From a virus (taxonomy: Duplodnaviria; Heunggongvirae; Uroviricota; Caudoviricetes), in IMG/VR virus record IMGVR_UViG_3300048670_001104: 64,000 nucleotides of DNA. One strand, written 5' to 3'. Below are positions 16,562 to 63,301 of this stretch, in pieces. Position 1 is the first letter of the stretch; each line of letters starts with the position of its first letter. The position numbers and the translations under genes are program-made. The notes beneath the pieces are model-generated. The model searched no databases, was not told the DNA's origin, and saw only the letters and a program-made list of their open reading frames with translations.

Positions 16562-16613
16562 AGATACATATCCTCTGGTGTATTTACCAGAGCTGTGTAT
16601 CTAGTGTATTATG

Positions 16614-37974: not shown

Positions 37975-38002
37975 TTCAATACTTATGTGACACTAAATAC
38001 CA

Positions 38003-39578: not shown

Positions 39579-39582
39579 AAAT

Positions 39583-40791: not shown

Positions 40792-41367
40792 TCAGATAGA
40801 GGATATCTGATCGCAGATGTTGTAGGCCAATGCTTCTTCTGCTGTGAGCCAAACATCGTGCGGTGGTAACAAGGTCTTCCTGATTTCATCTTCACGCAAT
40901 CCTGTGCATTCTCGATAGTGTGCTACCATGCGTTTTTGTGTGAGTTCAAACTCCTTGATGGTGGCAAACAATTCATGCACCTTGCCATCTGTGCCCCAGC
41001 TGAACTGATGACTCATGATTGAGGTATTGGGAGTCAAGGTTCGTCGGCCAGGAGATCCTGCCAAGAAGATCATGAGCCCTGCTGATTGTATCTGGCCCAG
41101 CCCCACAGTCTTGATGTAGATCTTGCTGCTACGCATCACGTCAATCAGCGCAAAAGCGGCACTCATGTCACCGCCATCGCTACAGATCATCAACAGCAGT
41201 TCTCGTTTCTTTTTCTTGGCCACGAGATTCTCATGCAAGATCCATTCAATAACCGGGGCGATGGTTTCATTGCTCACATCGCCCATGAACACATACACAC
41301 CATGATCGTGTAAGGCATCATGGTGTGTGCGTTCTATGACTTCATTGCTGTCGGAATGAAGAGCCAT
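40792..41367 (-). CDS. ClpP-like protease subunit (second paralog)
   Basis: ICSDGGDMSAAFALIDVM...GQIQSAGLMIF (active-site Ser context) ...SHQFSWG (His) ...PHDVWLTAEEALAYNICDQI. Confidence 0.78.
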   Translation of the reverse strand: MALHSDSNEVIERTHHDALHDHGVYVFMGDVSNETIAPVIEWILHENLVAKKKKRELLLMICSDGGDMSAAFALIDVMRSSKIYIKTVGLGQIQSAGLMIFLAGSPGRRTLTPNTSIMSHQFSWGTDGKVHELFATIKEFELTQKRMVAHYRECTGLREDEIRKTLLPPHDVWLTAEEALAYNICDQISSI

Positions 41368-41371
41368 GGCA

Positions 41372-41938
41372 TCACTTCAGGGCGTTGTCAAGATCTCGGA
41401 ACGCTTCGGCACTGCGGCCCTTGGCCAGGCGGGCGGCCTCTAATCGGTCCTTGCGTTTCTGCAACAGGTTGGCGTCACCTGTGGGCAATGCTACCAACAC
41501 ATAGGTGCGATAGCGACTGCCTTCGGTGATGTGCTTGATCTCACGCACTTCGGTACCAGTGATGTCCACCGAGGGGCATATGGCCTTGATGGCCAGTTCA
41601 GAAGTTTCAGTGCTGTACTCACCGCTGTCTTGCATGAACACCTTGCCTTGCTGTTCAATCTTGCCACCTGCGGCAATACAGATCTTGCCATATGCAAACA
41701 TCTTGGCCTTCCACTCACTCATGCTGAAATCATTGCTCACCGCGGCTCCGGTAGCAAACACAGCATTGTCGCTGTTGGGCATGGATTTCATCCACTTGGG
41801 AATATTGTCCACAGTGACTGCCACGATCTTTTCTTGGCGTTGATTTTCATCGTAGGCCTTTTTCTCGTAGTTTTCCTTGGGAACCGAGTTACAAGCAGCC
41901 AAACTGGCCACCACGGCTAATGCAATAATATTTTTCAT
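41372..41938 (-). CDS. lipoprotein (LPP20-like)
   Basis: Lipobox VASLAACN. 188 aa. Confidence 0.5.
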   Translation of the reverse strand: MKNIIALAVVASLAACNSVPKENYEKKAYDENQRQEKIVAVTVDNIPKWMKSMPNSDNAVFATGAAVSNDFSMSEWKAKMFAYGKICIAAGGKIEQQGKVFMQDSGEYSTETSELAIKAICPSVDITGTEVREIKHITEGSRYRTYVLVALPTGDANLLQKRKDRLEAARLAKGRSAEAFRDLDNALK

Positions 41939-42110: not shown

Positions 42111-42140
42111 ACTATAGCACATGAATCAGAACTTGTCAAC
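42111..42140 (-). promoter_or_regulatory. sigma70-type promoter TTGACA-N18-TATAGT
   Basis: Plus strand actatagcac...ttgtcaacc. Confidence 0.55.
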
Positions 42141-42689
42141 CACCACCCACTTGGAATTGTGGATCTCACAGATGATGCCCTGCCAGGTTCTCACATCCCG
42201 CCCGGTGAAGCCAGTGTCCAAGAACCAACGGCACCGAGTACCATTGTACCAAAATTCACGTGGATAATCTGGGTGCGGTCGGAACTGGGCCAAGTCCGCC
42301 ACTGTGCCTGGATTGGCCTGTCGTATGGTGTCCAGGGTGTGATCGTCTCGGCAGATCAGAATCTTTTCCGAAATCACTTTGCTGGCAGCCACTTGCTCTC
42401 GTACCGAATCTTCAGCACGTTTCACAGCCACAGCACAGGCAGAATCTCTTGGTGTGTTTCCGGGCCACGCATATTCACCGTTGGCAGTGTACCAGGCAGC
42501 ACCAACTCGGGCACGAAAGGTCACTAGACATCGTTTTCCGCCTGTGGGTTCAGGCACCACTGTGGCTGTGAGTTGTGTGCGTTCAGAGATCACTGCTGAA
42601 CTCTGACTCACAGTCTTGTCCTGCAACACACACTGATCAGCATGGGCAGTGGCTGCTGCCATGACCACTGCGGATAGAAGATTCTTCAT
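42126..42689 (-). CDS. hypothetical secreted protein
   Basis: Signal peptide MKNLLSAVVMAAATAHA. 187 aa. Confidence 0.5.
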   Translation of the reverse strand: MKNLLSAVVMAAATAHADQCVLQDKTVSQSSAVISERTQLTATVVPEPTGGKRCLVTFRARVGAAWYTANGEYAWPGNTPRDSACAVAVKRAEDSVREQVAASKVISEKILICRDDHTLDTIRQANPGTVADLAQFRPHPDYPREFWYNGTRCRWFLDTGFTGRDVRTWQGIICEIHNSKWVVVDKF

Positions 42690-44044: not shown

Positions 44045-44226
44045 ATCATCCAACTCTTGTTGCGAGCTGAATACATCAGTTCGAATCTGCGCTCCAGTGC
44101 TTCCACTTGCTGAATTGTGGTAGGACGGTGTGACAAGATGTACTGTTCCATTCTGGTTCCATAGTGCTGTGGCTCACTGAACCAATCCACAGCTCGTTTG
44201 ACATAGTCTCTCAGTGTCGTGAACAT
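44041..44226 (-). CDS. hypothetical protein
   Basis: 61-aa ORF. Confidence 0.45.
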   Translation of the reverse strand: MFTTLRDYVKRAVDWFSEPQHYGTRMEQYILSHRPTTIQQVEALERRFELMYSARNKSWMI

Positions 44227-44227
44227 G

Positions 44228-44509
44228 TTATGCTCCTTTGGTATGTGCGTTGGCCTGATATGCTTTCATAATGCCTTCGCCAAATTTGGCGTAATCAAAC
44301 TTGGCAGCTTCACGCAGAACCTTCTGGGTTTCTTGCATGATTTCAGTGGCTGCGTCTGTAGTGGCTCGGACGGCCTTTTTGGTGTAATCAGCCTGGGTGT
44401 CAATGAAATGATTCATGGACTCGGCGATGTGCTCGTTGGTGACGAAAGTCTTGACGAATTGTTTTTTACTGTTTTGAACAGTGTCGATCAGGGTGTCTGC
44501 TGTGAACAT
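44228..44509 (-). CDS. hypothetical protein
   Basis: 93 aa. AAGGAG RBS. Its 5' leader is homologous to the hsp20 leader. Confidence 0.55.
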   Translation of the reverse strand: MFTADTLIDTVQNSKKQFVKTFVTNEHIAESMNHFIDTQADYTKKAVRATTDAATEIMQETQKVLREAAKFDYAKFGEGIMKAYQANAHTKGA

Positions 44510-44571
44510 GGGTTTCTCCTTAGATAAGCAAGTAGACTATAGGACCCGCACCATGCAGCATCCTATGTGCT

Positions 44572-47401: not shown

Positions 47402-48010
47402 ATGACCATATTAGAAACACTGCGTGAGCAACGCTGGGACGATCATCGCTATTACCATCACAGCCGTATCAATCAATTCTTACATTTACTCAGTGCGTTA
47501 TCATTCATCGTGGCCTATGTGTATCTGATCATCGATCCTGTGATCAGTGCTTACATCGCCTGGTTGTTCTCAATGACCACACGCCAAGCCGGACATTTCT
47601 TCTTTGAACCCACGGACTACGACACCTACAATCAGGCCACACAAGATCACAAAGAGGCTATCAAGATTGGATACAATCTCAAACGCAAACGAGTACTGAT
47701 CGCTTGCTGGTTGGCTGTGCCGTTGCTGGCATATTTTGATGCGGCATTGTTTAACTTTGTGATGCCTGATGCTGCTCCAGACACCTTGATAGATAGAATT
47801 GGCTGGGGTTGGTTGTGGTTGGGTCTGGCTGCTGTGGTGTTCCGTATGATACAACTCACTGCCATACAAAGCCGTAGAGTCGCACTAGTGTGGTGTATCA
47901 AGATATTAACAGATCCATTCCATGACGCTGTGATCTATCGCAAGAGCCCGATCTATTTGTTGCGTGGGCAACTGATTGATCCTGACCTACGCCAAGACTA
48001 CGAAGATTAA
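47402..48010 (+). CDS. membrane protein (possibly DUF962/Mpo1-like)
   Basis: 202 aa. HxxxxNxxxH-like N-terminal region and multiple TM helices. AAGGAAA RBS. ATAAATA 17 nt upstream. Confidence 0.45.
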   Translation: MTILETLREQRWDDHRYYHHSRINQFLHLLSALSFIVAYVYLIIDPVISAYIAWLFSMTTRQAGHFFFEPTDYDTYNQATQDHKEAIKIGYNLKRKRVLIACWLAVPLLAYFDAALFNFVMPDAAPDTLIDRIGWGWLWLGLAAVVFRMIQLTAIQSRRVALVWCIKILTDPFHDAVIYRKSPIYLLRGQLIDPDLRQDYED

Positions 48011-49005
48011 AGTGGAGTAAGGTTGTCGCGGAATATCTGCCAGGCAGTCTGCCACGACCAGCGTTGGCTACCCGCTAACACTTGATCTCTATCCAACTGC
48101 AAACAACCAGTTATGGCATCGGCCAGGTCTTCATTCACAAATCCTGTCACACCCTGATCCACCACATCCAGTGGTCCTTGCACCGGATAAGCAGCCACTG
48201 GTGTGCCACAGGCCATGGCTTCGATCATCACTATGCCAAATGTCTCCCACTTGCTAGGAAACACAAACACATCAGCATCAGCATAGCATTGTGCCAGTGC
48301 ATGGCCAGTCTTGAATCCTTTGAACTCCACATCGGGATATAGTTTTTCCAGTCTAGCACGATCCGGGCCGTCACCTACCAACACTTTGCGAGCACCCGGA
48401 TAATTCAAACTGCAAAACGCATCCAGATTCTTTTCTATACTGAGTCTGCACACACATAACAGCACAGGGCCCGATCCTCTGCTGCCACGATAACCAGGAT
48501 TGAATACGGTTCTATCAACGCCACGGGTCCATGAGTTGATCTCACCCCAGAAGCCATGAGCTCGGAGTTCTTTCACCATGCTGTCCGTGGTTGTGAGCAC
48601 ACGACCCGAGTGCTTGTGGAACCACCGCACATACTTCCAGGTGATGCTTTCAGGTATCCTCAAAAATTTATGTAAGGCTTCAGGGTACTTTGTATGGTAA
48701 GCAGTATTATACCTACGATAGTGCCGGTCAAGATAAAATCTAGCGTAGAGACCCAAAGGACCTTCTGTGGCGATGTGTATATAATCCGGAGCCATCGTTC
48801 TAATCTTCTGCCCGATCGCCCAGGGAATCGAAACTTTAACTTCAGGGTAGCCTGGGCAATCAAAAAATACGAACTCCATGGGAGTAAGATATAACACACG
48901 ATAGCCATCCAGAACCGCACATGCCTCAATATTCTTGTATGTGGTAACAACGCCATTGATCTGCTCCGGCAAGTTATCTGTTATTATCAGTATCGTCTTG
49001 ATCAT
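48007..49005 (-). CDS. glycosyltransferase family 1 (GT4-type)
   Basis: VFPSKWETFGIVMIEAMACGTPVAAYPVQG (E-x7-E-like GT1 signature region). Confidence 0.8.
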   Translation of the reverse strand: MIKTILIITDNLPEQINGVVTTYKNIEACAVLDGYRVLYLTPMEFVFFDCPGYPEVKVSIPWAIGQKIRTMAPDYIHIATEGPLGLYARFYLDRHYRRYNTAYHTKYPEALHKFLRIPESITWKYVRWFHKHSGRVLTTTDSMVKELRAHGFWGEINSWTRGVDRTVFNPGYRGSRGSGPVLLCVCRLSIEKNLDAFCSLNYPGARKVLVGDGPDRARLEKLYPDVEFKGFKTGHALAQCYADADVFVFPSKWETFGIVMIEAMACGTPVAAYPVQGPLDVVDQGVTGFVNEDLADAITGCLQLDRDQVLAGSQRWSWQTAWQIFRDNLTPL

Positions 49006-49795
49006 TTTCTCGGGTCCATGTAACTATTTCCCACCGACCATCATGATGCTCTACAAGTGCTGTACAACTTTCCACCCAGTCACCATCATTCATGTAGGTC
49101 ACGCCGTTGATGTCGCGGATCTCTGCATGGTGGATGTGACCGCATATGACACCATCATATCCACGCTTCTTGCAGTAGTTAGCGAGATTCTGTTCAAACT
49201 GGAAAATAAAATCCACTGCTTTTTTCACACGATGTTTTAGATATTTACTCAAACTCCAATACCCAAAACCTAGTTTGTGCCGCAGCCAGTTGAATCTGGT
49301 GTTCCATATCAGGATCATGTCATAGGCCGCATCGCCAAGAAAACTCAACCACGGTGCCAGTCTGGTGATGCCATCAAACATGTCGCCATGCACCACGAGA
49401 TAATGTCGACCATCAGCACCCGTGTGTTCAGTCTGATTGCATATCTCTATCAAGCCAAAATTAAATCCATATGGTATCATTGGGCGCAGGAATTCGTCGT
49501 GATTGCCTGCCACATAGATCACTCGTGTGCCGCGTTTGGCATGGCCCAGCACACGCCGCACCACATTGGTATGGCTCTGTTTCCAACGCCATTTGTTCTG
49601 TTGGATACGCCAAGCATCAATGATATCCCCCACTAGGTACAGGGTATCACAGGTGTTGTGTTTGAGAAAGTTGTTGAGTCGGTCGGCCTGGCAGTCTCTT
49701 GTGCCCAGATGCACATCACTGATTGCTATTGTTCTATATTTTTTTTGTTGTTTTATCATAAATAAAAGTGTAGTTCGCGGGCGTCCACTCCCCAA
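48974..49795 (-). CDS. metallophosphoesterase, LpxH-like (UDP-2,3-diacylglucosamine hydrolase family)
   Basis: IAISDVHLG, LYLVGDIID, AGNHDEF, GHIHH motifs. Confidence 0.7.
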   Translation of the reverse strand: MGSGRPRTTLLFMIKQQKKYRTIAISDVHLGTRDCQADRLNNFLKHNTCDTLYLVGDIIDAWRIQQNKWRWKQSHTNVVRRVLGHAKRGTRVIYVAGNHDEFLRPMIPYGFNFGLIEICNQTEHTGADGRHYLVVHGDMFDGITRLAPWLSFLGDAAYDMILIWNTRFNWLRHKLGFGYWSLSKYLKHRVKKAVDFIFQFEQNLANYCKKRGYDGVICGHIHHAEIRDINGVTYMNDGDWVESCTALVEHHDGRWEIVTWTRENDQDDTDNNR

Positions 49796-49825
49796 CTACT
49801 CTAACGCTATAAGGAGCAATCAGTA

Positions 49826-50479
49826 ATGAGTATTTATAAAGAGATTCGTTACAAAAATATTAGGCTCAATGGGTATTACATCTATGCATATTTAAGAAAA
49901 GATGGCACACCTTACTATGTAGGTAAGGGGCAACAATACAGAGCATGGATGAATCACAGAGTCAATAATAAAGGAGTCCATACTCCTAAAGATATAGACC
50001 GTGTAATCATTATGGAGCAAGATTTATCCGAAGTAGGAGCGTTTGCATTAGAACGCAGATATATTCGCTGGTACGGCAGAAAGGATGTAGGCACAGGTAT
50101 ACTACATAATAGGACAGACGGTGGCGAAGGTGGATCAGGTGCAAGTGCCGGCAAGGCTCGTCCCGGGGAACTTAACGGAATGTATGGAAAGAGGCGGCTA
50201 CCAGAACTCATTGCCAAAGCAGTTGCCGCTTCGGTATTAAATTTAAAAGGTAAAACTTACGAGGAAATATACGGATTAGAAAAAGCCGCTAAACTAAGAA
50301 AACAGAGATCTGATTCCTTAAAGGGGAAAAAGAAATCTCCTGAACATGCCGCTAAATCTAAAGCCAACGGTATGAAGGGTGCTCTAAAGATTGGTGCCGC
50401 TCGTAAAGGCAAGACTTGGGATGAAATCTACGGCAAAGAAAAAGCCGACGAAATAAGAGCACTCCGACGGCTTAAATGA
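49826..50479 (+). CDS. GIY-YIG homing endonuclease (seg-like) with NUMOD-type DNA-binding repeats
   Basis: [20 protein letters not shown] (GIY...YIG), R, E, N catalytic residues. C-terminal repeats G(K/M)..S.EH..K.S.A..G. AAGGAG RBS. Confidence 0.85.
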
Positions 50480-51505
50480 TTACAACTCCAACCACCGACG
50501 ATGCAGTTGATCAGTGGCCAAGTTCTTGCCCTTGGCTTCGACCTGGATATCCCAATCTTCACTAAAGGTCAATGCCCAGTCAGTCACAGCTGAGTTCCAA
50601 AGAAAGTCCGAATGTGCTCGAAGTTTCTGTTTACGGTATCCCCGGTCAAGTAGTTGTGCGAGATCAGGTCGAGTTCCGGGATCGTGATCAACCAGAATAT
50701 CTTCACGGCTAACACTATAGTGAAGTGCAGGACGAGTACCGCGCCAAGACTCCACAACACGACGCGCCCTAGAGTCCGAGGGGGTGATGTATTCACCGGT
50801 GTTGATCCAGTGGTGGTGGATGTCCAGCGTAAGAGCACAATGCTCAGCCACAGCCAAAGTAACGTCGATACCATTTGTCATCTCATCATTCTCGATAGCG
50901 ATTAGATTCCTGGCTTCGGGTGTGAGTCGACCCAAAGTCTGCAGGAATTTAGCGGGGCCACCTTTACCGCTCAAATGCACATTTATCTTGAAACCGTGAT
51001 CATGCCAGCCAGCGCCATAGCCCATCCAACGAGCCATGTCTGCATGATATTCAAACTCTAGTATGCTGCGTTCAACGATCTCATCAGATTCCGACGCCAA
51101 CACACAGAACTGTCCAGGGTGGAAACTCAGCCGTACACCAAGACGACGAGCAGCCTCGCCCACAGGAGCAAATATCCGTTCGCAGTGGTCTTGGATTTCT
51201 GTTCGTTGCCACCAGTCGATCCAGGATGGTTCAGTGTAGCCTTGCAGCATTTCTGAACCTAGCCGGACCATACGGCGTTCTGGTGCCATTGCACCCACAC
51301 GCTCTACCATCATCAACGCAGCACGAGCATTGTGGTTCATGATGTCCCACTGACGCTGGTCGGCTTCTTCCTTGTGTTCGCGTAGCCAACGCATTGTGGT
51401 GCTTCTGCCGTTGATATCACGGTCCACAGCATTCACCTTCATACCGCCGCATTCATTAGGGTCGTTAAGCCACTTGCAGCAAAATCCGAATCGAGCCATG
51501 ATCAT
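50480..51505 (-). CDS. UV damage endonuclease UvdE/UvsE-like
   Basis: MIMARFGFCC, SFHPGQF, LDIHHHW, DIQVEAKGKNLA align with B. subtilis UvsE landmarks. Confidence 0.72.
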   Translation of the reverse strand: MIMARFGFCCKWLNDPNECGGMKVNAVDRDINGRSTTMRWLREHKEEADQRQWDIMNHNARAALMMVERVGAMAPERRMVRLGSEMLQGYTEPSWIDWWQRTEIQDHCERIFAPVGEAARRLGVRLSFHPGQFCVLASESDEIVERSILEFEYHADMARWMGYGAGWHDHGFKINVHLSGKGGPAKFLQTLGRLTPEARNLIAIENDEMTNGIDVTLAVAEHCALTLDIHHHWINTGEYITPSDSRARRVVESWRGTRPALHYSVSREDILVDHDPGTRPDLAQLLDRGYRKQKLRAHSDFLWNSAVTDWALTFSEDWDIQVEAKGKNLATDQLHRRWLEL

Positions 51506-52056
51506 GTACCGTTGTTGTTGTTACCTAGTAATTGTAACACATTTGGCAATAGATCTCTAGTGATATTGGAGAGTTTTTGGATGGGTTCGGCAAGATCGGT
51601 GTGATGATCTACGATCACCCATTGCTTACCGCTGAGTTCTATAGCGTTGGCCAGGATACCGATGTAGTTGTTTCTGCTTGGTGAGGGCGTGGTTTTTGCT
51701 TCCAGATCAAATCCTACCATGAGTATCACATCTGCTACACTAGCAACTAAATGTGTGGCTATGATGTCGTCAACCGAATCCACTGCAAAATCAAAAACTC
51801 CACCAAATGCTCGCACACCCACCGGCCGGTCTAACTGTTGATAAACAATTTCGGGTATGTAGAGATTACAGGTCTTGGCGTAGCCTTGACGGCACAATTT
51901 CTCTGCCTGTTCCGGATTCCAACATACCACATTGTCGGATTGGTAACTTCTTTGTGTGCGCCAACTACCCCAGATGGGTGCAAGATCCCGTATGGCCTGC
52001 ACTGGTGTAGTAGGCGGTAATACTGTATTTTCTGCAAACAACCATGCTATGTTCAT
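51502..52056 (-). CDS. hypothetical protein
   Basis: 184 aa. ATGA junctions on both sides. Confidence 0.5.
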   Translation of the reverse strand: MNIAWLFAENTVLPPTTPVQAIRDLAPIWGSWRTQRSYQSDNVVCWNPEQAEKLCRQGYAKTCNLYIPEIVYQQLDRPVGVRAFGGVFDFAVDSVDDIIATHLVASVADVILMVGFDLEAKTTPSPSRNNYIGILANAIELSGKQWVIVDHHTDLAEPIQKLSNITRDLLPNVLQLLGNNNNGT

Positions 52057-52970
52057 GCTTCTCTATGTAGATCCAAAGTAACGCAATGGAATCCACCACC
52101 CAAGGTCCTGCTGTGACGCAGTTGCATGGGTATCACTGTGAACTGGTTCTTTTCTAATAAGCTGATCAACATGGGTTGATCTTTATCCACGATCACTGTG
52201 TGAGGATTCACTACCAACATATTTAATGCTATCCATTTTGATGCATATGGGTACTGAAAGAATCCTTGTTCTTCCACGTGGTTGCAGTAGATCACTTCCC
52301 AGTCTTTGAGCGATTGAGGTAAGTTGTCGGGTGTCACACGACTGCCGTTGACCAGCACAAGACCTTCACGCAGTGGCACTATGGTTGAATCAATATGCAC
52401 ACCCGAATAGAAGTTAACTAATTCAATATCAACCGTAGGGAAATGCTTGCACATCCATTCATAAGCAGCCCGATTGCCCGAGGACGATTCTAAATAAATC
52501 CACTTATCATTTAGCCTAGCGATGTTGGCAGCATCCAAGGTCATTCCTTCGTGGCGAGGCATGAATAGATAGTTGGTGGCTGCATCCACGACATCGTGAT
52601 AGCATTGCAGTTCCATGTCTCTGCAGGGATACATCATGGCAGGATTCACTATGGTGTCGCCGTAAACCAACAGTCGATCTCTTGGACAATAGTTATACAT
52701 GCCATCATGTGCTTGGAAATTGAAATCATCTGGGCGGAACACTTCCACATTCAACGATTTCAGCAAGCCAACCAATTGATCAAGATCCTCGTTGGCCTCT
52801 GCAATAATCCAGTCTGGAACCGGTCCCGACGGCACAGGTGTATCTTTCCATAGTGTGCGTTCTTTTTCTAGTGCAAATACCGGATCATTTACCGGCCAGT
52901 TGGCGTGATCGGCACGCCCCACTACCGCGGATCGCAACGGATCCCATTCGTTATAACTGTGGATTTTCAT
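52053..52970 (-). CDS. amidinotransferase family protein
   Basis: C-terminal LGGGFHCVTLDLHR (catalytic Cys motif of the amidinotransferase / arginine deiminase superfamily). Confidence 0.68.
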   Translation of the reverse strand: MKIHSYNEWDPLRSAVVGRADHANWPVNDPVFALEKERTLWKDTPVPSGPVPDWIIAEANEDLDQLVGLLKSLNVEVFRPDDFNFQAHDGMYNYCPRDRLLVYGDTIVNPAMMYPCRDMELQCYHDVVDAATNYLFMPRHEGMTLDAANIARLNDKWIYLESSSGNRAAYEWMCKHFPTVDIELVNFYSGVHIDSTIVPLREGLVLVNGSRVTPDNLPQSLKDWEVIYCNHVEEQGFFQYPYASKWIALNMLVVNPHTVIVDKDQPMLISLLEKNQFTVIPMQLRHSRTLGGGFHCVTLDLHREA

Positions 52971-53488
52971 ACAGTTCCGGTTAGTTGTAATGTGTATCTA
53001 TTGGTTTGACCCATGTTGGCCGCCAGGTGCAAAAAGTCATCGTGCCATGATACCCAATCTCCGGCACGCCATCCTGTGACCGGAGTTCCGTTCATTTCTA
53101 GGTAGTGGCCGCTGGACCAGTCTTCCAGGAATACTATGGTCCTCACCACCGAATGTGTAGTTTCCAATCCATGTATCAGCTTGAATCTATCATAGGTATC
53201 TCTATGTGCAGGTAACACACAGCCCGGTATCATGCGATAGAAACTCCATGAGAATCTTTCAAACGGGAATACATCGCGAAATGAGTCTACCCAGGTAGGT
53301 TCACTGTTACGCATGTCATACATGTCTCCGGTGAATCTACTTTGAGAGAAGCCTAACCTACGCCATTCTGTGAGACTGGAAGAGTCGTTGAATGGTTCGT
53401 TGATGTAGGCTAGATCTCTGTGCCCGAGACCCCACCAAGGATCCACGTGCCCCTGTGCCCAGGTGTTATTTTGCGCGGGTGTTACCAT
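52967..53488 (-). CDS. hypothetical protein (cupin/hydroxylase-like, tentative)
   Basis: LPAHRDTYD...H spacing reminiscent of HxD...H metal sites. Confidence 0.4.
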   Translation of the reverse strand: MVTPAQNNTWAQGHVDPWWGLGHRDLAYINEPFNDSSSLTEWRRLGFSQSRFTGDMYDMRNSEPTWVDSFRDVFPFERFSWSFYRMIPGCVLPAHRDTYDRFKLIHGLETTHSVVRTIVFLEDWSSGHYLEMNGTPVTGWRAGDWVSWHDDFLHLAANMGQTNRYTLQLTGTV

Positions 53489-54704
53489 AGTGGATCACGG
53501 TTAACCCGGCCATGTCACCGAGTTTGCGCCATGGATCAACAATTATAGAACCCTGGGGAATTGTGCAATAGGGTTGTGTTTCGGGTTGATCACCGGTGTA
53601 CTCATATGTGATCTTGCGATCATGTGCCCACAGTATCACCGCTGGTCCAGTCAAATCTGTGACCACATCTGTAGGATCATCTGCCAATGGATCAAGATAC
53701 CGCACCTCAAATCCGGCTTGTTTCACATAATGTCCGACTAGGGTAGAGTATGATCCAATGCAGTAAGGAACATCGGGCTTGTAGGCCTTACCATGTATCA
53801 CTATGCCTAATGCATGTTGTCGAGCATGACCAATCAGGAATTCGGCTAGATTCCGTGCCTGGATCTCTCTGGCATGCATCACAGTATCAAACAAGTCGTA
53901 TCCGATATTGTATTCTTTTGCCAACCAACGCAGAGCAATGTTATCACGAGGGTGACAAGCGCCTGCATCACCCATGCCTGCTGTCATGTATTTGGGTCCC
54001 ATGATTCTCATGGTGCTACGTGACAGTGCATTTGTGACCACATCCACATTGATATTACCGATCCGCATGGCAAAATCTTGAATCATGTTTACCAAGCCCA
54101 CTTTGGCCGAGATGAACGTGTTATAGAAGATCTTCACAGCTTCGCATTCGTCCCAGGTGCCGATTTCATAGCGTGGGTCGTTCTGCATCACAGTATCGTA
54201 CAAATCCTTGAGTTCGCCTGCTATACCATTCCAGTCACCGTCCTCTGTACCAATCATGATCATTTCCGGATTGACCATGTCCCACTTGACCGATCCCATG
54301 GCAATGAGATAGGGGTTATATAAGAACTGATGTTTTGAGTCCAACAATGGCACAAAATGTTTACGTGTGGTACCCGGCAATACAGTGCTGATCAGTACCA
54401 CTTTCTTAGAATCACGTGCATGAGTGTTGACCTTGTTGATGGCATCAATCACTGCTGCATGACCAAAGTCTCGAGGTTCCATATGGCTGGACGGAACCGA
54501 TCCGTCATAGCCATCGGCATGTGGAGTTGGTACAGCAATAAAAATCCATTCGCTTTCGTTAACCAATTCATCGATATCGCAAACTTTTACCAAGTCACTC
54601 ACACGCGGGTAAATATCATAGCCTCTGACTTCGTGCTTCTCTGCCATGACTTCGGCGCAATCAAGTCCTAGCTTACCGATACCAATAAAACCAATTTTCT
54701 TCAT
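53466..54704 (-). CDS. nucleotide-sugar (UDP-glucose/GDP-mannose type) dehydrogenase
   Basis: N-terminal Rossmann KIGFIGIGKLG. Catalytic Cys context GDAGACHPRDNIAL. AAAGGAA RBS. Confidence 0.75.
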   Translation of the reverse strand: MKKIGFIGIGKLGLDCAEVMAEKHEVRGYDIYPRVSDLVKVCDIDELVNESEWIFIAVPTPHADGYDGSVPSSHMEPRDFGHAAVIDAINKVNTHARDSKKVVLISTVLPGTTRKHFVPLLDSKHQFLYNPYLIAMGSVKWDMVNPEMIMIGTEDGDWNGIAGELKDLYDTVMQNDPRYEIGTWDECEAVKIFYNTFISAKVGLVNMIQDFAMRIGNINVDVVTNALSRSTMRIMGPKYMTAGMGDAGACHPRDNIALRWLAKEYNIGYDLFDTVMHAREIQARNLAEFLIGHARQHALGIVIHGKAYKPDVPYCIGSYSTLVGHYVKQAGFEVRYLDPLADDPTDVVTDLTGPAVILWAHDRKITYEYTGDQPETQPYCTIPQGSIIVDPWRKLGDMAGLTVIHYGNTRAK

Positions 54705-57185: not shown

Positions 57186-57494
57186 TCACTTGGAATCAGG
57201 TTCTAGTTTGATCTGCAATGGGTATTCTTGCTCTCGAGCACTGGCAGTGACTTCTGTGCCTTTTTGCTCGGCAATCTCAAAAGGCAGCACAGCCACTGTG
57301 GCTTGACCGTGCTCATGGATACCCACTGTGAGTTGCGTGGCAGTTTCTACTGTGTAATCAAAAAACTCCACCAAACTGCCTACCACAAATTCCATTGTGG
57401 TGGTGTTGTCGTTGATATAGATCACACGATAAAGAGGCGGCTCTTTGACGGCTTTTTTTGTTCGAGTAATAGTTGCTGCTTCTGCGTTTGACAT
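57186..57494 (-). CDS. clpS: Clp protease adaptor ClpS
   Basis: KEPPLYRVIYINDNTTTMEFVVGSLVEFFDYTVETATQLTVGIHEHGQATVAV matches the ClpS core. Start at the Met preceded by GAGGA. Confidence 0.85.
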   Translation of the reverse strand: MSNAEAATITRTKKAVKEPPLYRVIYINDNTTTMEFVVGSLVEFFDYTVETATQLTVGIHEHGQATVAVLPFEIAEQKGTEVTASAREQEYPLQIKLEPDSK

Positions 57495-57509
57495 AGTGGT
57501 CCTCATGGA

Positions 57510-57531
57510 GTGGCAGGGTGATTCCTGCCAC
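57510..57531. other. 8-bp GC-rich hairpin (GTGGCAGG-gtgatt-CCTGCCAC) between hsp20 stop and clpS start
   Basis: Seen in the sequence. T-rich on the plus side only. Candidate processing/attenuation site or terminator for the convergent plus-strand transcript. Confidence 0.4.
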
Positions 57532-57549
57532 TGTATTTACACAATTATA

Positions 57550-57996
57550 TTACGAATTGTAAGCAATCGCAATACTCTTTGGCTTGGCTGACTCAGGAAC
57601 TTCACGTTCCAGCAGCACAGTCAAGATACCATCACGAATGGCAGCACCTTTCACTTCCACATGCTCAGCAAGCGGAAATGTCTGTTTGAAATCTCTAGCA
57701 GAGATTCCACGGTGCAGATATTCGTGTTCTTGGTCTTTTTCAGTTTTCTTGGCACCTGTAATGGTGAGCAAGCGTTGATCAAGACTGATATCAATTTCGC
57801 CTTCAGCAAATCCAGCCACAGCCACTTCAATGGTCACGGTGTGATCACCGGTCTTGATCACATTGTGAGGTGGGTAGTTGGTTGAACTTTGAGTCTGTGT
57901 GACACGCTGTAGGTCGGTGAACAGATCGTCAAAACCAATACCAAATTTGTTGAATGCGGGGATATCGAAGGCACGAAGGTGCAGAGTTTTTGTCAT
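57550..57996 (-). CDS. small heat-shock protein Hsp20 (IbpA-like)
   Basis: YPPHNVIKTGDHTVTIEVAVAGFAEGEIDISLDQRLLTITGAK...YLHRGISARDF matches the alpha-crystallin domain. AAGGAG RBS. Confidence 0.85.
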   Translation of the reverse strand: MTKTLHLRAFDIPAFNKFGIGFDDLFTDLQRVTQTQSSTNYPPHNVIKTGDHTVTIEVAVAGFAEGEIDISLDQRLLTITGAKKTEKDQEHEYLHRGISARDFKQTFPLAEHVEVKGAAIRDGILTVLLEREVPESAKPKSIAIAYNS

Positions 57997-58064
57997 GTTG
58001 TTTCTCCTTTAATAAGCAAGTATGACTATGAATGTAGACCCCACCATGGGCATCTACAAGTGTA

Positions 58065-58093
58065 TTTATACATAAAATCTCAATGATTGTCAA
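58065..58093 (-). promoter_or_regulatory. promoter TTGACA-N17-TATAAA containing an exact TATAAATA (T4 late-type) element
   Basis: Minus-strand reading of tgtatttatacataaaatctcaatgattgtcaa. Lies upstream of hsp20. Confidence 0.55.
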
Positions 58094-58352
58094 GTTTCAT
58101 CGGCTCGATCATTCTGTAGTTTCGGAGTTCCGGATGTTTAGGATTCCAAGTCAGGGCAAAAAAACTATACATCTCATCGGGCTCTAGCACTACCCTAGTG
58201 ACATATTTTACCGTTTTGATTTGGTAAGCAATCGTATGCTTCTGATACCAGATCAGTAATTCTTCATGTAATATATGATTGACCCAAGCTGCTTGGCTAG
58301 GCTTGTCGTTGACTCCAAGATCAGCAGCAAGGAGATCAAACGCGATATACAT
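58080..58352 (-). CDS. hypothetical protein coupled to clpX
   Basis: 90 aa. TGATG 1-nt overlap with the clpX stop. Confidence 0.5.
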   Translation of the reverse strand: MYIAFDLLAADLGVNDKPSQAAWVNHILHEELLIWYQKHTIAYQIKTVKYVTRVVLEPDEMYSFFALTWNPKHPELRNYRMIEPMKLDNH

Positions 58353-59557
58353 CAGTCTGTGCCGTCTAACGCAGCAGGTGCTAGTACCATGCTGGGCTCG
58401 ATCTTAACGACCTTGATGCCCATTCCTGAATAACGACGTAGATTAAACATGTGTGGTATCAAGGTGCGTTCAATCTCTGAATGCAAGCCTCTAGCACCTG
58501 TTTTGTTTGTGAGTGTGCGTTCTGCTATGAGATCCAGGGCAGATTCAGTGAACTCCAACTCCACGCCATCTTCTTTGAACAGCCAGTGATACTGTTCAAT
58601 ATAGTTGTTCTTGACTTCGGTAAGGATGCGGATCAAGTCTGCTTTTGACAGTTCACGCAGGCTTACCCAGTTGGGAAAGCGTCCCACAAACTCTGGAATC
58701 ATACCAAACTTCACAAGGTCGTCCGGTGTGGTCATGTCCAGGTCTGTGTCTATACTGGCTTGTACTCGGGCATTAAATCCGATTGATGTGCCTTGCACAC
58801 GATTCTTTACTATGCTGTCTAGCCCTACAAAAGCACCACCGGCAATAAACAAGATATTCTTGGTATCGATCTCGATCATGTCACCGCCGGGGTGTTTGCG
58901 CCCGCCCGCAGCACTCACGCGGCACACTGTGCCTTCTACCATTTTCAGCAGAGCCTGTTGCACACCTTCTCCGGATACATCGCGTGTGATTGAGGTCGAT
59001 TCCCCTTTACGAGCGATCTTGTCAATCTCATCCACAAACACAATGCCTCTCTGTGTTTTGGCAATATCGTTGCCCGATGCAGCATACAGTCTGCTGATTA
59101 GACTTTCCACATCATCGCCCACATAACCTGCTTCGGTGATTGATGTTGCATCTGCGATGGCAAAAGGCACGTCAAGATATCGTGCCACACTTTTGGCCAG
59201 CAGGGTTTTGCCCGAGCCAGTTGGTCCCAACATCAGGATGTTGGCTTTGTCCAGTTCGGGTTCCGCTGTGGTCTTGCTGATGCGTTTGTAATGATTCACA
59301 ATGGCCACGGCCAACATGATCTTGGCAGAGTGTTGGCCTATCACATATTGATCTAGGTATTTCTTCAACACCATGGGATCCATCTTGTCTGATGGTTGTG
59401 GAGCGATCTCCACCACAGGTGTTTCATCCTTGAGCAAGTCCTGGCAGAAGTCCACGCATTCGTTGCAGATACCTGCGTATTCACCCACGATGAGGTTCTT
59501 TACCGAGTCTTTGTTTTTGCCGCAGAAGCTGCAATTGGTGTGTGTTTCTTTGGTCAT
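58352..59557 (-). CDS. clpX: ATP-dependent Clp protease ATP-binding subunit ClpX
   Basis: N-terminal C4 zinc finger CSFCGK...CNEC. Walker A GPTGSGKT. Extended similarity to ClpX throughout. Confidence 0.9.
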
Positions 59558-61086
59558 TTGGTATGTATGCGTTGTTCTATCTGATCGCGTTCGCTGTCAC
59601 TAAGCATATCCGGGTCATAGCGACCTTGTTCAATTTCATCAATCAAGTGATCGATGTATGCTGTGTCGTAGGTGTAGTTTTCTCGATTGATAATGTTGAT
59701 CCATTGATCGCCATTGTGTTTATATAGTTGGTTGGGAATGGCCGAGGTTAAAACATAGGTATCACCCTTGGTTCCTCCAGCAGGTAACTCTGTTCCAAAA
59801 TTGGCTTCGGGTTCGCGATGTAGGTAGTCTATCCAAGGCAGTCGATCTATCACGCCCACATCCAGCAACCGTCGTTGGCGTTTGAGACTGTCTCGTGGAT
59901 GGTCGGCTTTCCATCGTGCCTTGGCTGACTTGACTTCAGGGCTGTCTTCATCATCATCTTCTTCTGCTACGACTACTGGTTCTTCATCATCGGAGAATGG
60001 GCCATCCATGACATCACACTGGTTGTTAGGGCAGAACAATCCTATGCCGGGTGCATTGATCAGTTCTGTTGAGCACTTGTGGCAGTGGATGGCTTGGTAG
60101 TCAGTTGCTACGGTCTCTCGGATCTGTTCAAGCTGATCATTGGTGAGGGGGCCGTCATCTGGTTCGTAGTCCGGGACAGGCATGGACACAGTCGGCCAAG
60201 TCACATCAGCAACTGGTTCCGGCCAGGGTCGATTGTGTACATTTTCAGAAACATGTTCCTCAACTGGCTCTTCAATCTTGACCTTGGGCTTTTCTCTAGC
60301 CCACTTGAGACTTTCTGTAGCAGCCAACAACATCATGATGGCCAAGGGATCAAACACAAACACCAACAAGATTATGACCCAACGCACTGCTCGCTCTAAC
60401 ACATTGGTATCAGGGCTGTCGCCGTAGATCAGTGCTGCTATGTATTTGATTGGACCAACTTCGGCTTCCACCTTGCGAACTTCGGCCGCAATTGGAGCAC
60501 GGTCTTGATTGAGTGCTGTGATACGCTTTTGGCTTTCTGCAATTTCCGCAAGCAGGCGCTGACGCTCTTTCTGTTGGCTGCGCCTAACAGCCACAGCCTT
60601 GTCCGCACCTTGTGTGTCTGAACTGCGACCCATAACCTGGTCCACAGCCTGGTCCATTTGCGTAAGGGATTTACGGCTAACATCTATATTCTCCTTTTCA
60701 GTCCGGATTTTCTCATCATACACGGCAATTTTGGCAAGGACATCACCACTTACCAAACTCTGATCGCTATGGGCCTTTGATAGGAAACCAAAGATACCCA
60801 TGCTTGTGATCAACATCAACAACATCACAGCAGGAACCAAGTATAGTTTCATCAACCATCTGGCTCGATGCCAATACTCGTGCAGCCATATGGTCACAAC
60901 AACCTTGGCCACTTCTAGTATTGATCCCATGATCATGATGGGTATCACTGCCGCGGCAAAGATAGCTGCCAGGCCTGCTATGCTATAGTAGGCAGCAATA
61001 ACGCTGAGGCTCAAGGCCACAGCCAAGGTTATAAGACTGAGGAACATAAGATTATTTACCGGGTGGTGCGATGATAGTAACACCAC
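59554..61086 (-). CDS. membrane protein with long coiled-coil and acidic C-terminal region
   Basis: 510 aa (alternative start at the Met at 61047). N-terminal TM helices. ATGA junction with clpX. Confidence 0.5.
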
Positions 61087-61369
61087 ACTTTATGGCCACC
61101 CATGTGCCAAACTTTTCGTCGGGCACATCAAACCAAATACGCTCTTGTTTTTTTTCGTCAAGCCAGATGTTATGGCTCAATCGGCGCTTGGCACCGGATT
61201 GTCCACGCCAGTTACGGCCATACAAGGCATTGGCTTCGCGGATGATCTTGTACCACATCTCCGTAGTGCCAATCTCCATGTAAACGCGGTGCATGGGCGA
61301 GGGCGTTTTTTCAAGCGAGTTAAGTGACTCAGACATACTCAACGCAGAGGTCTCAATGTTAACAGACAT
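61052..61369 (-). CDS. hypothetical protein
   Basis: 105 aa. AAAGGA RBS. Preceded by a ~180-nt leader. Confidence 0.5.
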   Translation of the reverse strand: MSVNIETSALSMSESLNSLEKTPSPMHRVYMEIGTTEMWYKIIREANALYGRNWRGQSGAKRRLSHNIWLDEKKQERIWFDVPDEKFGTWVAIKCGVTIIAPPGK

Positions 61370-61558
61370 TTCTATATCCTTTCCAGACTATTTCTCATAG
61401 CATACTCCCAGGAACATCCTGGTTTTGATCTTTCGATCGAGGTCTCGGTCGCAACCTACGAGATTTATGTTCGAAGTGCTACGGAACAAGCAGGCATCTC
61501 GAGATTATGTTACCCTGCCCGCCCATCGAACAACTCACCTCCCCGCCCATGCCTAGCA

Positions 61559-61587
61559 ATTGTAGCACAGACCAGGAAAGGTGTCAA
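61559..61587 (-). promoter_or_regulatory. sigma70-type promoter TTGACA-N17-TACAAT
   Basis: Minus-strand reading of attgtagcacagaccaggaaaggtgtcaa. Confidence 0.6.
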
Positions 61588-61605: not shown

Positions 61606-62304
61606 TTATTCTTTTCTGCCGCCGAACAACTGCAATAGATTGATAAACAGATTGATGAAATCCATGTACAAAGTCAATGCACCGCGCACTTCTGCGGCAT
61701 CACTGGTCTCTGCACTGAGTTCTTGACGGATTTGTTGTGTGTCGTAAGCAGTTAGTCCCAAGAAGATGATGATTGCCAAAGCCGAGATCACCATCTGCAT
61801 CACAGTGGATCCGATAAAGATATTCACAATACTGGCAATCACAATGGCAATCAAGCCCACAAACATCATCTGGCCCATTGAGCTTAGATCTTTTTTGGTA
61901 AAATAACCATAGCCACTCATTACCCCAAACAGGATGGCCGCACCCATGAATGCACTCACAATCGATCCCATGGTGAACACAGCAAAGATCGTGGCAAAAC
62001 TCAAGCCCATCAAGGCTGCAAAGCCATGCAAGCATAACTGTGCCACACCTTTAGTTGGATTGTTTCCTAGCACCATGCTAATACCAAATATTGCTGCCAG
62101 TGGTGCAAAGATCACAATCCACTTTAGGATGCCTGTAAAAAAGAATGCCAGCAACTCTGGGCTGGTTCCCACAAAGTAACTGACCAACATTGACACAATC
62201 ACCGCCAGGCTCATGTGTCCATACACACGGCCCATAGCACTGTTGATTTCTTCTGCTGAACGATAATTTATAAAACCGTTTTCTGTATAATTTGTACCAA
62301 ACAT
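61606..62304 (-). CDS. Bax inhibitor-1 / YccA family membrane protein
   Basis: Seven TM helices. C-terminal ALTLYMDFINLFINLLQLFGG matches the BI-1/YccA signature. AAGGAG RBS. Confidence 0.82.
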   Translation of the reverse strand: MFGTNYTENGFINYRSAEEINSAMGRVYGHMSLAVIVSMLVSYFVGTSPELLAFFFTGILKWIVIFAPLAAIFGISMVLGNNPTKGVAQLCLHGFAALMGLSFATIFAVFTMGSIVSAFMGAAILFGVMSGYGYFTKKDLSSMGQMMFVGLIAIVIASIVNIFIGSTVMQMVISALAIIIFLGLTAYDTQQIRQELSAETSDAAEVRGALTLYMDFINLFINLLQLFGGRKE

Positions 62305-62314
62305 ATCGTTCTCC

Positions 62315-63115
62315 TTATTTTCCGTTGGTGGCCACTGTGGGTGTAACTACTCCATTGATAACCAGTGTTTGACCTTTGAAGTTGGCAATGGCATCTGGCA
62401 ACTTACGCATGGCTTCTGCTTCGGCTTCGGCCATCAGCAAGGGAATTGCCATTGGGTTGGCCTGCATGCTTTCGTTACGCTTGCGAGCTGTGGCCACTTT
62501 GACTTCTTCAGTCTTGAACTCGTTCTTGGCCTTGACCAATTCGTTAGCTGAAGCCACAACTGAGTCGGCTGGCACAATATTACGAATCAACACTTGACCA
62601 ATCATGATAGTGCCATCCAACTTTTCTTCCGCCAGGATTCGAGTAATCTGTTCCTTGATTTCAGTTTCCATGGCCTGTCGGCTATCGGCCATGTCCAGAG
62701 CTTCGTACTTGCGAGCACTCTTGTAGATAGCGTTACGTGCAGCATTGAAGAGGTAGTTGTACATCAAGTAAACGTCACCATCGTCCACGGCGTGAAAGCT
62801 GCGATTCTTGCTGTTGTAGATTTCAGCTACCTGTGCTTGATTGATGTTGTAGGTGATCAAGGCATCAAAGTCTTTCATTGTGCTGTTGTCTTTGGCCAGT
62901 GGAGTCATGTTCTCAACTTTAACACTGATCTCTTTCACAGGGAAAGTGATCACAGTTCCAATGATAGTCTGATTAAACGAACCAGGCAGCAACTCACCGG
63001 TGTTGACCTGTTTGTCAAAGCCCACACGAAGGCCAACCTCACCAGTTTCAATACGAGTACAACCTGTGGCCAGCAAGGCTGCGGTAAGAACGGAGAGAGT
63101 CAAAATACGTTTCAT
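62315..63115 (-). CDS. SPFH/band-7 (prohibitin/HflC-like) lipoprotein
   Basis: Lipobox LLATGC. SPFH core with a coiled-coil C-terminal region. AAGGAAA RBS. Confidence 0.78.
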   Translation of the reverse strand: MKRILTLSVLTAALLATGCTRIETGEVGLRVGFDKQVNTGELLPGSFNQTIIGTVITFPVKEISVKVENMTPLAKDNSTMKDFDALITYNINQAQVAEIYNSKNRSFHAVDDGDVYLMYNYLFNAARNAIYKSARKYEALDMADSRQAMETEIKEQITRILAEEKLDGTIMIGQVLIRNIVPADSVVASANELVKAKNEFKTEEVKVATARKRNESMQANPMAIPLLMAEAEAEAMRKLPDAIANFKGQTLVINGVVTPTVATNGK

Positions 63116-63124
63116 TATGTTTCC

Positions 63125-63301
63125 TTAAAATAAAATTACGATCACAGTCATTACCAGAACAGTCAGCAATGACACAATTATACTGTATGCAATGGACTTT
63201 GTCAAGGTCCACTGCTCCAGGCCTGTCATGTTTCTCCAGGCAGTGATACCAAAGTGAATCACCACAGCAAGCACAGCAAACGCCAACCAGAGTCTAATCA
63301 T
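63125..63301 (-). CDS. small membrane protein
   Basis: MIRLWLAFAVLAVVIHFGITAW...two TM helices. Confidence 0.4.
   Translation of the reverse strand: MIRLWLAFAVLAVVIHFGITAWRNMTGLEQWTLTKSIAYSIIVSLLTVLVMTVIVILF

Follow-up and report, generated by a model that had tools for sequence, protein, structure and literature searches.

Does a large phage bring its own regulated proteolysis into the host cell and, if so, by one machine or by two? This question is raised by a 64,000-nucleotide stretch of viral DNA (IMG/VR record IMGVR_UViG_3300048670_001104; the whole stretch is referred to as the window), in which the genes for the unfoldase ClpX, an IbpA-like small heat-shock protein (Hsp20) and the adaptor ClpS lie together, and two clpP-like genes, clpP1 and clpP2, are found elsewhere. 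A preliminary description of the window, made from the sequence without database searches, had read these genes as a single set of ClpXP plus ClpS. Based on the results presented below, we consider it moderately probable that they belong to a quality-control and proteolysis suite inherited within the phage lineage, which comprises two machines, ClpX with ClpP and ClpA with ClpS, together with ClpP2 and helper chaperones.

The clp genes form a conserved block in a clade of uncultivated jumbo phages

Between positions 57186 and 61587, six genes follow one another on the minus strand in the order orf105, TM510, clpX, orf90, hsp20 and clpS (Table 1). Close relatives of this ClpX are encoded on 254 viral contigs of IMG/VR. 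The best 80 of these 254, which we refer to as the 80 related loci, show ClpX identities of 64-96% and are located on contigs of up to 345 kb; thousands more related ClpX proteins are present in a protein database derived from metagenomes. The gene order TM510, ClpX, (orf90), Hsp20, ClpS, with a convergent gene for a metallophosphoesterase behind it, is shared by practically all of these loci. This synteny demonstrates that TM510-ClpX-(orf90)-Hsp20-ClpS is a vertically conserved block of a large clade of uncultivated jumbo phages.

The window has a G+C content of 46.9%, is about 90% coding and contains a number of phage hallmark genes, which encode a T4-type clamp loader, tail-fibre proteins, a DNA polymerase fragment and a DNA methyltransferase. 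The clamp loader, the tail fibres and the polymerase fragment, together with the 254 related viral contigs, bear out its earlier assignment to a phage. The best match of the clamp loader in a cultured phage is that of the Pseudomonas jumbo phage PA5oct (287 kb; 51% identity), with the giant phages SCTP-2, Atu_ph07, Phosso and the Rak2-like group next in line. A megablast search with the clp cluster against GenBank phages gave no match, indicating a lineage without a close cultured relative. We assign the window to a myovirus of jumbo size that is uncultivated and has PA5oct among its relatives.

ClpX is a canonical unfoldase

The ClpX protein scores above the cutoffs of two curated NCBIfam models (NF003745, 515 bits with a cutoff of 359; TIGR00382, 492 bits with a cutoff of 371). 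In an alignment with a solved ClpX of 424 residues from E. coli, the four zinc-finger cysteines, the Walker A and B motifs, the GYVG pore loop, the RKH loop, the IGF loop, the arginine finger and sensor-2 are all kept, in agreement with the intact zinc finger and Walker A motif reported earlier. Among 66 distinct relatives, these motifs show little or no variation. The loop for docking on ClpP, for which the preliminary description had suggested a check, is present as SIGFN at residues 258-262, and the 66 relatives carry I/M-G-F at this place (I in 57, M in nine). By means of these loops, ClpX would dock on the phage-encoded ClpP1 described below.

The stop codon of TM510 overlaps the start codon of clpX (ATGA), and the stop codon of clpX overlaps the start codon of orf90, so that these three genes look translationally coupled. 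The TM510 gene immediately precedes clpX in practically all of the 80 related loci. Its product consists of N-terminal transmembrane segments, a coiled coil and a Cys-rich C-terminal segment. A comparison with Pfam returned sub-threshold matches only (DUF4407 and Tetraspanin) and no family. TM510 may serve ClpX as a partner anchored in the membrane, or be one of its substrates. For orf90, neither a Pfam, NCBIfam or PHROG family nor a relative among solved structures was found. Its 74 homologs are all from this clade and are unnamed or doubtfully named, and the designation "ribosomal protein L5" that some of them carry at JGI is unsupported by family and structure searches. An AlphaFold model of the orf90 product, calculated from 25 homologs, is of low confidence (mean predicted local distance difference test score of 56).

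ClpS is a probable adaptor of ClpA

The assignment of clpS was confirmed by a match of 86 bits to the Pfam family ClpS (PF02617; cutoff 23); the best NCBIfam score, 85.8 bits, is under the equivalog cutoff of 149. The true start of the gene is most likely the ATG at position 57494 (MSNAEA...), because it is preceded by a GAGGA ribosome-binding site and the relatives begin there as well (MSN or MSQ).

ClpS proteins dock on the N-domain of ClpA (or ClpC); the N-domain of ClpX is a zinc finger, and ClpX does not possess the N-domain on which ClpS docks. In published structures of the E. coli protein, N34, D35, D36, T38, the gatekeeper M40 and H66 form the N-degron pocket, and E79, E82 and K84 (E. 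coli numbering) are the residues contacting ClpA. When aligned to a solved ClpS, the protein from the window keeps N34, D35, T38, M40, H66, E79 and K84, with D36 replaced by N. Among 64 distinct phage sequences, no exchange occurs at N34, D35, T38, H66, E79, E82 or K84, and 53 retain M40. Together with the full ClpA encoded by relatives, the invariance of E79, E82 and K84 points to ClpA as the probable partner of the protein. The joining of ClpS and ClpXP into one set, as in the preliminary description, had to be given up: a pairing of ClpS with ClpX is mechanistically wrong.

Relatives of the phage carry a clpA gene near the clamp loader, which marks the left edge of the window. On contig L243, the clamp loader of which is 94% identical to that of the window, a dnaJ gene and an adjoining gene for a ClpA of 761 residues are located 5.4 kb downstream of it, and in close relatives a distance of 5-7 kb separates the clamp loader from the genes for ClpA and DnaJ behind it. 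The ClpA of L243 contains a Clp_N domain and two AAA modules, aligns with a solved ClpA from end to end and carries the tripeptide IGF where E. coli ClpA has IGL. Relatives of this ClpA share large contigs with ClpX, ClpP1 and ClpP2. Since the clamp loader is situated at the left edge of the window and relatives are syntenic, the clpA gene of this genome is expected, and probably located, just outside the left end. ClpS would bind to the N-domain of this ClpA and hand N-degron substrates to ClpA-ClpP instead of serving ClpX.

Three observations weigh against such an assignment. The window itself contains no clpA gene, so that a phage-encoded partner of ClpS is extrapolated from relatives. A 3.9-kb contig of this genome, which extends 2.4 kb past the clamp loader, carries only radical-SAM and PhoH genes; in PA5oct, PhoH likewise precedes DnaJ-ClpA. 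Genes identical to those of the window are also present in the sequencing runs SRR35181279 and SRR35181280. Finally, the position of E. coli D36 is occupied by N in 52 of the 64 ClpS sequences, including that of the window, and binding of N-degrons may be altered by this exchange.

An alternative is that the phage ClpS hijacks the ClpAP of the host, either redirecting it to N-degron substrates or blocking its normal ones, and that the phage ClpX uses host ClpP. Such a role of phage ClpS was proposed in a survey of jumbo phages (PMC7824862), the lack of clpA in the window would agree with it, and the similarity of ClpP1 to cellular ClpP (see below) makes mixed complexes of phage and host subunits conceivable. 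Yet both ClpA, which contains an IGF loop, and ClpP1 are encoded by the relatives themselves, and the complete set co-occurs on single large contigs. For these reasons we regard a hijacking of host ClpAP as unlikely, bearing in mind that it and a self-contained phage machine are not mutually exclusive.

The two ClpP paralogs differ in their docking features

The clpP1 gene extends to position 35997; the boundary at 35970 given earlier corresponds to an internal ATG. Its product aligns with a solved ClpP at 273 bits (about 70% identity by eye), with an intact Ser-His-Asp triad and a propeptide-like N-terminus. It reaches 318 bits with the NCBIfam subfamily model PRK00277 (NF001368; cutoff 249) and 303 bits with the equivalog model TIGR00493, just under the cutoff of 308.6. 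The positions of the axial loop and the hydrophobic docking pocket, which in E. coli ClpP gate the pore and accept the IGF loops, are kept (P4, V6, E8, E14, R15, D18, Y62, F82, I90, M92 and L114), and the position of Y60 is mostly occupied by S.

ClpP2 presents a different picture. Its best score with an NCBIfam ClpP model is 94 bits, under the cutoff of 228. The axial-loop positions P4, V6, I7 and D18 are deleted, and the docking pocket is changed (F82 to S, L114 to T, L189 to S/A and F49 to H). All solved ClpPs match it at about 50-63 bits, with no bacterial ClpP1 or ClpP2 closer than ordinary ClpP, and the protein is so far confined to phage records. Judged by these sequence comparisons, ClpP2 is a divergent paralog rather than an orthodox ClpP. 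The catalytic residues were examined in both groups: Ser97, His122 and Asp171 are invariant in 103 distinct ClpP1 sequences, as are the corresponding Ser, His and Asp in 74 distinct ClpP2 sequences, indicating that both proteins are under selection as active peptidases. The earlier statement that both copies retain the triad is thus upheld. The ClpX-docking pocket, which was to be checked along with it, is present in ClpP1 and missing from ClpP2.

The two genes are closely linked. In all 97 related loci that contain both of them, clpP2 precedes clpP1 and shares its strand. Most often the two are about 1.6 kb apart, a distance filled by a variable gene, which lies on the opposite strand where it could be identified, and in five of the 97 loci clpP2 and clpP1 are directly adjacent (gap of -2 to 96 nucleotides). 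A clpP1 gene is found within 4 kb in 68 of 80 clpP2 loci; genes of the ClpP1 type occur alone in 33 of 62 untruncated loci. As the two genes stay linked and only ClpP2 has lost its docking features, we favor a ClpP1-ClpP2 heteromer, which is plausible by analogy to bacterial ClpP1P2 systems. The latter (Mycobacterium, Listeria, Chlamydia, Pseudomonas aeruginosa) likewise consist of two catalytically competent tandem paralogs, one of which carries the ATPase-docking features, and in several of them the unfoldase binds to one ring only. Unlike their bacterial counterparts, the phage genes are usually separated by the variable gene on the opposite strand. ClpP2 would be competent in its active site, devoid of features for docking of an ATPase and most likely the second ring of a ClpP1-ClpP2 tetradecamer.

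ClpP2 could also function apart from ClpP1, either as an ATPase-independent peptidase or as a ClpP-like protease for virion or prohead maturation. Its missing axial loop and docking pocket would fit this assumption, as would its matches to PHROG families named "head maturation protease" and the flag for electrospray ionization tandem mass spectrometry (ESI-MS/MS) in the annotation of PA5oct ClpP. Moreover, a ClpP2-like gene without an adjacent clpP1 is found in cyanophage BUCT-ZZ01 and one far from clpP1 in Phosso, which suggests that ClpP2 may not need a phage ClpP1 and tells against the heteromer. The NCBIfam model for head maturation (NF045542), however, scores ClpP2 at 59 bits, lower than ClpP1 at 112 bits, and both remain below its cutoff of 120. 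The neighbors of the ClpP genes are not head genes either: around clpP2, we find genes for secreted or lipoprotein-like proteins and a LysM-M23 peptidase, and no portal or capsid gene. Furthermore, the fixed order and occasional adjacency of clpP2 and clpP1 suggest co-expression, and clpP2 seldom occurs without clpP1, whereas clpP1 is often alone. We therefore consider a function of ClpP2 without ClpP1 doubtful, and a role as a prohead protease less likely than the heteromer, which we retain as the favored interpretation.

The interval between the two genes (35958-40791) appears as a variable insertion spot, which holds a single gene of about 1.6 kb or none in most relatives. In the window, it contains genes for a LysM-M23 peptidase, a protein of PHROG 3560 and two proteins of 330-350 residues that belong to no family. 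Immediately upstream of clpP2 on the minus strand, a lipoprotein-like protein (41372-41938) and a secreted-protein-like product (42126-42689) are encoded; both are family-less and conserved in most relatives.

Origin of the clp genes

A scan of bacterial ClpX proteins, with one genome per species, yielded only a single match above 56% identity to the ClpX of the window. This match (81%) is encoded on contig L403 (NZ_JBBAKG010000031.1), a 70-kb contig filed under a metagenome-assembled genome (MAG) of Haliscomenobacter sp. Because this contig contains the ClpX-Hsp20-ClpS block of the phages (77-82% identity), it is probably a phage contig binned with the bacterium, or a hint at the host, and not the source of a bacterial homolog. 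A phylogeny, which had been suggested as a way to separate host-derived from phage-specific genes, placed the phage ClpX in a clade of its own: in a neighbor-joining tree, the environmental phage proteins are monophyletic relative to 79 bacterial ClpX, and the nearest bacterial ClpX found is at most 56% identical. As far as sequence relationships can tell, the clp genes are long-time residents of the phage clade and not recent captures from a host. One result is at odds with a common history reaching as far as PA5oct, the ClpX of which is only 43% identical to that of the window and falls outside its clade in the neighbor-joining tree, so that synteny by itself has to carry the common descent of the cluster.

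It is highly improbable that the cluster stems from a cell, be it as a piece of host DNA, as a contaminant or through chimeric assembly. In favor of such a source, genes for ClpX, ClpP1, ClpS and Hsp20 are typical of bacteria, a related contig was deposited within the Haliscomenobacter MAG, and several GenBank "phage" records matching ClpP and ClpX resemble bacterial contigs. Against it, the bacterial clpP-clpX-lon arrangement is absent, the genes sit among the clamp loader, tail fibres and phage hypotheticals in a densely coding window, the same arrangement recurs on the long viral contigs, the identity to sampled bacterial ClpX drops from 81% to 56% or less, and the MAG contig carries the phage block itself.

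A structured leader RNA precedes the clpX operon

Upstream of orf105, a σ70-type promoter with extended –10 region was identified. At a distance of 182-202 nucleotides before orf105, this site matches the consensus in 12 of 12 positions in 43 of 73 relatives and in at least 11 positions in 53 of them. The approximately 190 nucleotides between promoter and orf105 are conserved and clearly structured. RNAalifold predicted 29 base pairs, 20 of which show compensatory changes, and 92% of all pair cells are paired. The covariation score of 0.473 compares with 0.04-0.12 (maximum 0.123) for slid pairing partners and was reached by none of 500 shuffles. A long-range helix of the structure ends one nucleotide 5′ of the ribosome-binding site. 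By nhmmer, we detected one copy of the element in the window and one each in 56 of the 80 related loci, always upstream of orf105, and no copy elsewhere in 5.4 Mb of sequence. Searches of Rfam 15 returned nothing meaningful even at E values of up to 10, and seven relatives scanned at gathering thresholds gave no hit for the leader. The element may represent a new cis-regulatory RNA of the clpX operon. According to this arrangement, orf105, TM510, clpX and orf90 would be transcribed together from a host-type σ70 promoter and through the structured leader. The possibility that the leader is a tmRNA was tried and rejected by an ARAGORN scan, which detected neither tRNA nor tmRNA genes in the window.

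The hsp20 gene is preceded by a ROSE-like element

The IbpA-like Hsp20 named in the preliminary description is present: the protein matches Pfam HSP20 with 61 bits and PHROG 432 ("Hsp20") at 1.9e-39. Its best NCBIfam model is IbpA (115 bits), the equivalog cutoff of which (212) is not reached. In addition to the alpha-crystallin domain, the protein carries an I-A-I motif of the I-x-I type at its C-terminus (...KSIAIAYNS). Hsp20 would hold unfolded proteins.

The 5′ untranslated region of hsp20 can be folded into two hairpins. In hairpin 1, which contains a bulged G, UUGCU lies opposite the AGGAG ribosome-binding site; in hairpin 2, GUCA is paired with UGAC of the start region. Of 52 distinct relatives, 50 share the motif U(U/C)GCU...AGGAG and 51 the two-hairpin fold. 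Hairpin 1 is 94% paired, with compensatory changes at four of its 10 pairs. The position before an IbpA-like gene, the two hairpins, the bulged G and the UUGCU/AGGAG pairing are shared with the ROSE thermometers of ibpA and hspA (Rfam ROSE_3, RF02523), to which the leader gave a full-model match. The phage element differs from this family in being phage-encoded, in the TATAAATA box that precedes it and in its outer stem, which sequesters the start codon as well. In this candidate thermometer, the ROSE-like hairpin would gate translation of hsp20 by sequestering the ribosome-binding site and the start codon. Two points count against a thermometer: the ROSE_3 match, at 24.1 bits, is below the gathering score of 43, and hairpin 2 is invariant and hence beyond covariation testing. 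Scanned at the gathering threshold, seven relatives showed no ROSE match. Folding energies of single hsp20 leaders do not differ from those of shuffled sequences, so that the case for a structure rests on conservation and covariation. ROSE-like elements also precede hsp20 on other phage contigs (L193, L213, L236, L237 and L240). A second, weaker copy is located in the window itself (44511-44562, minus strand; nhmmer E of 3e-4), in front of a 93-residue open reading frame (ORF; 44228-44509, minus strand) with only weak, sub-threshold phasin and perilipin-like matches. A longer ORF on the opposite strand (44219-44527, plus) is probably not a real gene.

The TATAAATA box, which is identical to the late-promoter consensus of phage T4, is found 4-6 nucleotides before hairpin 1 in most of the 52 relatives. 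As a general promoter motif of the window it was rejected, since two copies correspond to chance level. The enriched form is TAAATAC, with 11 copies in the window, eight of which are within 150 nucleotides upstream of a gene on the same strand. Genes behind boxes of this type include hsp20, clpS, a tail-fibre gene (14198-16561; box at 16580-16587) and the gene at 16947-17489. We infer that TAAATA-type boxes act as promoters, and they may bear on the timing of expression. In front of clpS, a GTAAATA box is followed by a covarying hairpin; both are kept in most of 48 distinct relatives, and the clpS 5′ hairpin fold has an energy of -18.2 kcal/mol (z = -2.1).

Table 1. Positions of the clp genes, chaperone genes and candidate regulatory elements in the window
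Feature	Position	Strand	Basis or remark
Clamp loader, T4-type	324-1247	minus	left edge of window
gp31/GroES-like co-chaperonin	1975-2376	minus	Pfam Cpn10, 27.5 bits (cutoff 21.1)
clpP1, canonical ClpP with short propeptide	35386-35997	minus	NCBIfam; alignment with solved ClpP
clpP2, divergent ClpP paralog	40792-41367	minus	Pfam CLP_protease, 102 bits (cutoff 20.2)
clpS, probable N-degron adaptor of ClpA	57186-57494 (ORF to 57506)	minus	Pfam ClpS
GTAAATA box followed by 9-bp hairpin, before clpS	57509-57540 (box 57534-57540)	minus	sequence and conservation
hsp20, IbpA-like small heat-shock protein	57550-57996	minus	Pfam HSP20, NCBIfam, PHROG
ROSE-like two-hairpin 5′ untranslated region of hsp20, candidate RNA thermometer	57991-58059	minus	Rfam ROSE_3 and conservation
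TATAAATA box	58063-58070	minus	just upstream of hsp20 leader
orf90	58080-58352	minus	start overlaps clpX stop; no family
clpX, canonical AAA+ unfoldase	58352-59557	minus	NCBIfam ClpX equivalog and motifs
TM510, membrane protein of 497-510 residues	59554-61047 (alternative GTG start at 61086)	minus	ORF
orf105, first gene of the operon, no family	61052-61369	minus	ORF; no Pfam match; precedes TM510 and clpX in nearly all relatives
Structured 5′ leader RNA, ~190 nucleotides	61370-61558	minus	covariation; no Rfam family
σ70-type promoter (TTGACA-17-TACAAT, TG-extended)	61559-61587	minus	11 of 12 consensus positions

Comparison with cultured jumbo phages

The closest cultured counterpart of the locus is found in PA5oct (vB_PaeM_PA5oct; Arenbergviridae, Wroclawvirus), which carries the same set in the same relative order (genes EST35_0255-0260, 0272, 0290 and 0297-0298), with proteins that are 34-48% identical to those of the window. 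Its annotation lists ClpX (EST35_0255), a heat-shock protein (0259), ClpS (0260), a YccA-like protein and FtsH, ClpP (0272), a chaperonin beside the clamp loader (0290/0291) and DnaJ-ClpA (0297/0298). The two phages differ in several respects. The place of orf90 is taken in PA5oct by an S21-like gene together with two hypothetical ones. Within the 35 kb of synteny that were examined, PA5oct encodes a single ClpP of the ClpP1 type and no ClpP2, and the region upstream of its hsp20 gave no match to ROSE_3. The distance from ClpS to the clamp loader is 16 kb in PA5oct compared with 56 kb in the window.

Clp genes have been described from other jumbo phages as well. Agrobacterium phage Atu_ph07 carries seven genes of the Clp family, including ClpX, ClpA, ClpB, ClpP and ClpS (PMC6102473), and Bacillus phage G encodes ClpP and ClpX, both of which were detected in virions (PMC12484599); the two genes of phage G are adjacent. 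Among the proteins that a comparative survey records from 224 jumbo phages are ClpP, ClpA, ClpX, Hsp20 and ClpS, the last of which was proposed to feed the ClpAP of the host (PMC7824862). In Sinorhizobium phage Phosso, we find ClpX, ClpS, ClpA and two ClpP genes about 85 kb apart, one of which is ClpP1-like (64% identity) and the other ClpP2-like (48%). The ClpX proteins of the group Atu_ph07, Phosso and phage G are 48-51% identical to that of the window, and the clp genes of these phages are scattered, unlike the clpX-hsp20-clpS block described here. The view that such a set is unusual for a phage thus holds in comparison with small phages and fails for jumbo phages, where PA5oct, Atu_ph07, phage G and the survey show it to be a known trait.

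Other genes of the window

The chaperone complement of the window also includes a gp31/GroES-like co-chaperonin, which had been recognized before and scores above the Pfam Cpn10 cutoff. It matches PHROG 931 ("head morphogenesis") at 9e-13 and is 37% identical to the "chaperonin" of PA5oct, the gene of which is likewise located beside the clamp loader. This gp31-like protein would work with host GroEL. With these results, all family assignments of Clp and chaperone genes made from the sequence are supported by Pfam, NCBIfam or PHROG matches or by alignments with solved proteins.

Upstream of the clpX promoter, genes for a Bax1-I/YccA-like membrane protein (61606-62304) and an SPFH/Band-7 protein (62315-63115) are located on the minus strand behind a promoter (63177-63205) that matches the σ70 consensus in 12 of 12 positions. 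Both proteins resemble modulators of FtsH. Beside the cluster, a YccA-like gene is found in 13 of the 80 relatives and an SPFH/Band-7 gene in five. In PA5oct, ftsH adjoins the YccA-like gene, at a place equivalent to that of the YccA-like gene in the window; no such ftsH gene was found within 10 kb in the 80 relatives. The TTGACA/TATAAT promoters of the window look more like those of a proteobacterial host.

Sugar and repair genes are clustered at 48007-54704, encoding a GT4 glycosyltransferase, a metallophosphoesterase, the UV endonuclease UvdE, an Asp/Arg hydroxylase-like protein and a UDP-glucose dehydrogenase-like protein. Near the clamp loader (2799-3912, minus strand), a short ORF matches only a DNA-polymerase PHROG of 171 positions (11127) and may be part of a split or fragmentary polymerase gene.

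Discussion

ClpX/ClpS/Hsp20/ClpP sets are already known as a trait of jumbo phages. New are the conserved ClpP2-ClpP1 pair, the candidate RNA thermometer of a phage and, before the clpX operon, a structured leader that has no family in Rfam. Shown by the sequences are the identities of the genes, their intact motifs, conservation, synteny and the covariation of the RNAs; the partner assignments, the heteromer, temperature sensing, the timing of expression and the purpose are proposals built on them. With respect to the purpose of the suite, we favor proteostasis for a very large virion and proteome, to which turnover of host proteins may be added.

A more far-reaching hypothesis, which we put forward tentatively, is that a freshwater-type clade of jumbo phages operates its Clp system in a manner for which no phage precedent is known, combining three devices: a new leader RNA that is riboswitch-like or binds a protein, a ROSE-like thermometer of hsp20, and a hetero-tetradecamer of ClpP1 and ClpP2 that receives ClpX and ClpA on the ClpP1 face only.

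In a very abundant clade of uncultivated phages, represented by at least 254 viral contigs of up to ~350 kb, the trait forms a core block that is conserved by vertical descent. The tandem ClpP pair with its asymmetric docking features, the candidate leader RNA and the candidate thermometer provide testable handles on the control of proteostasis by phages. If our interpretation is true, large phages import host-like RNA control elements as well as host-like quality-control enzymes.

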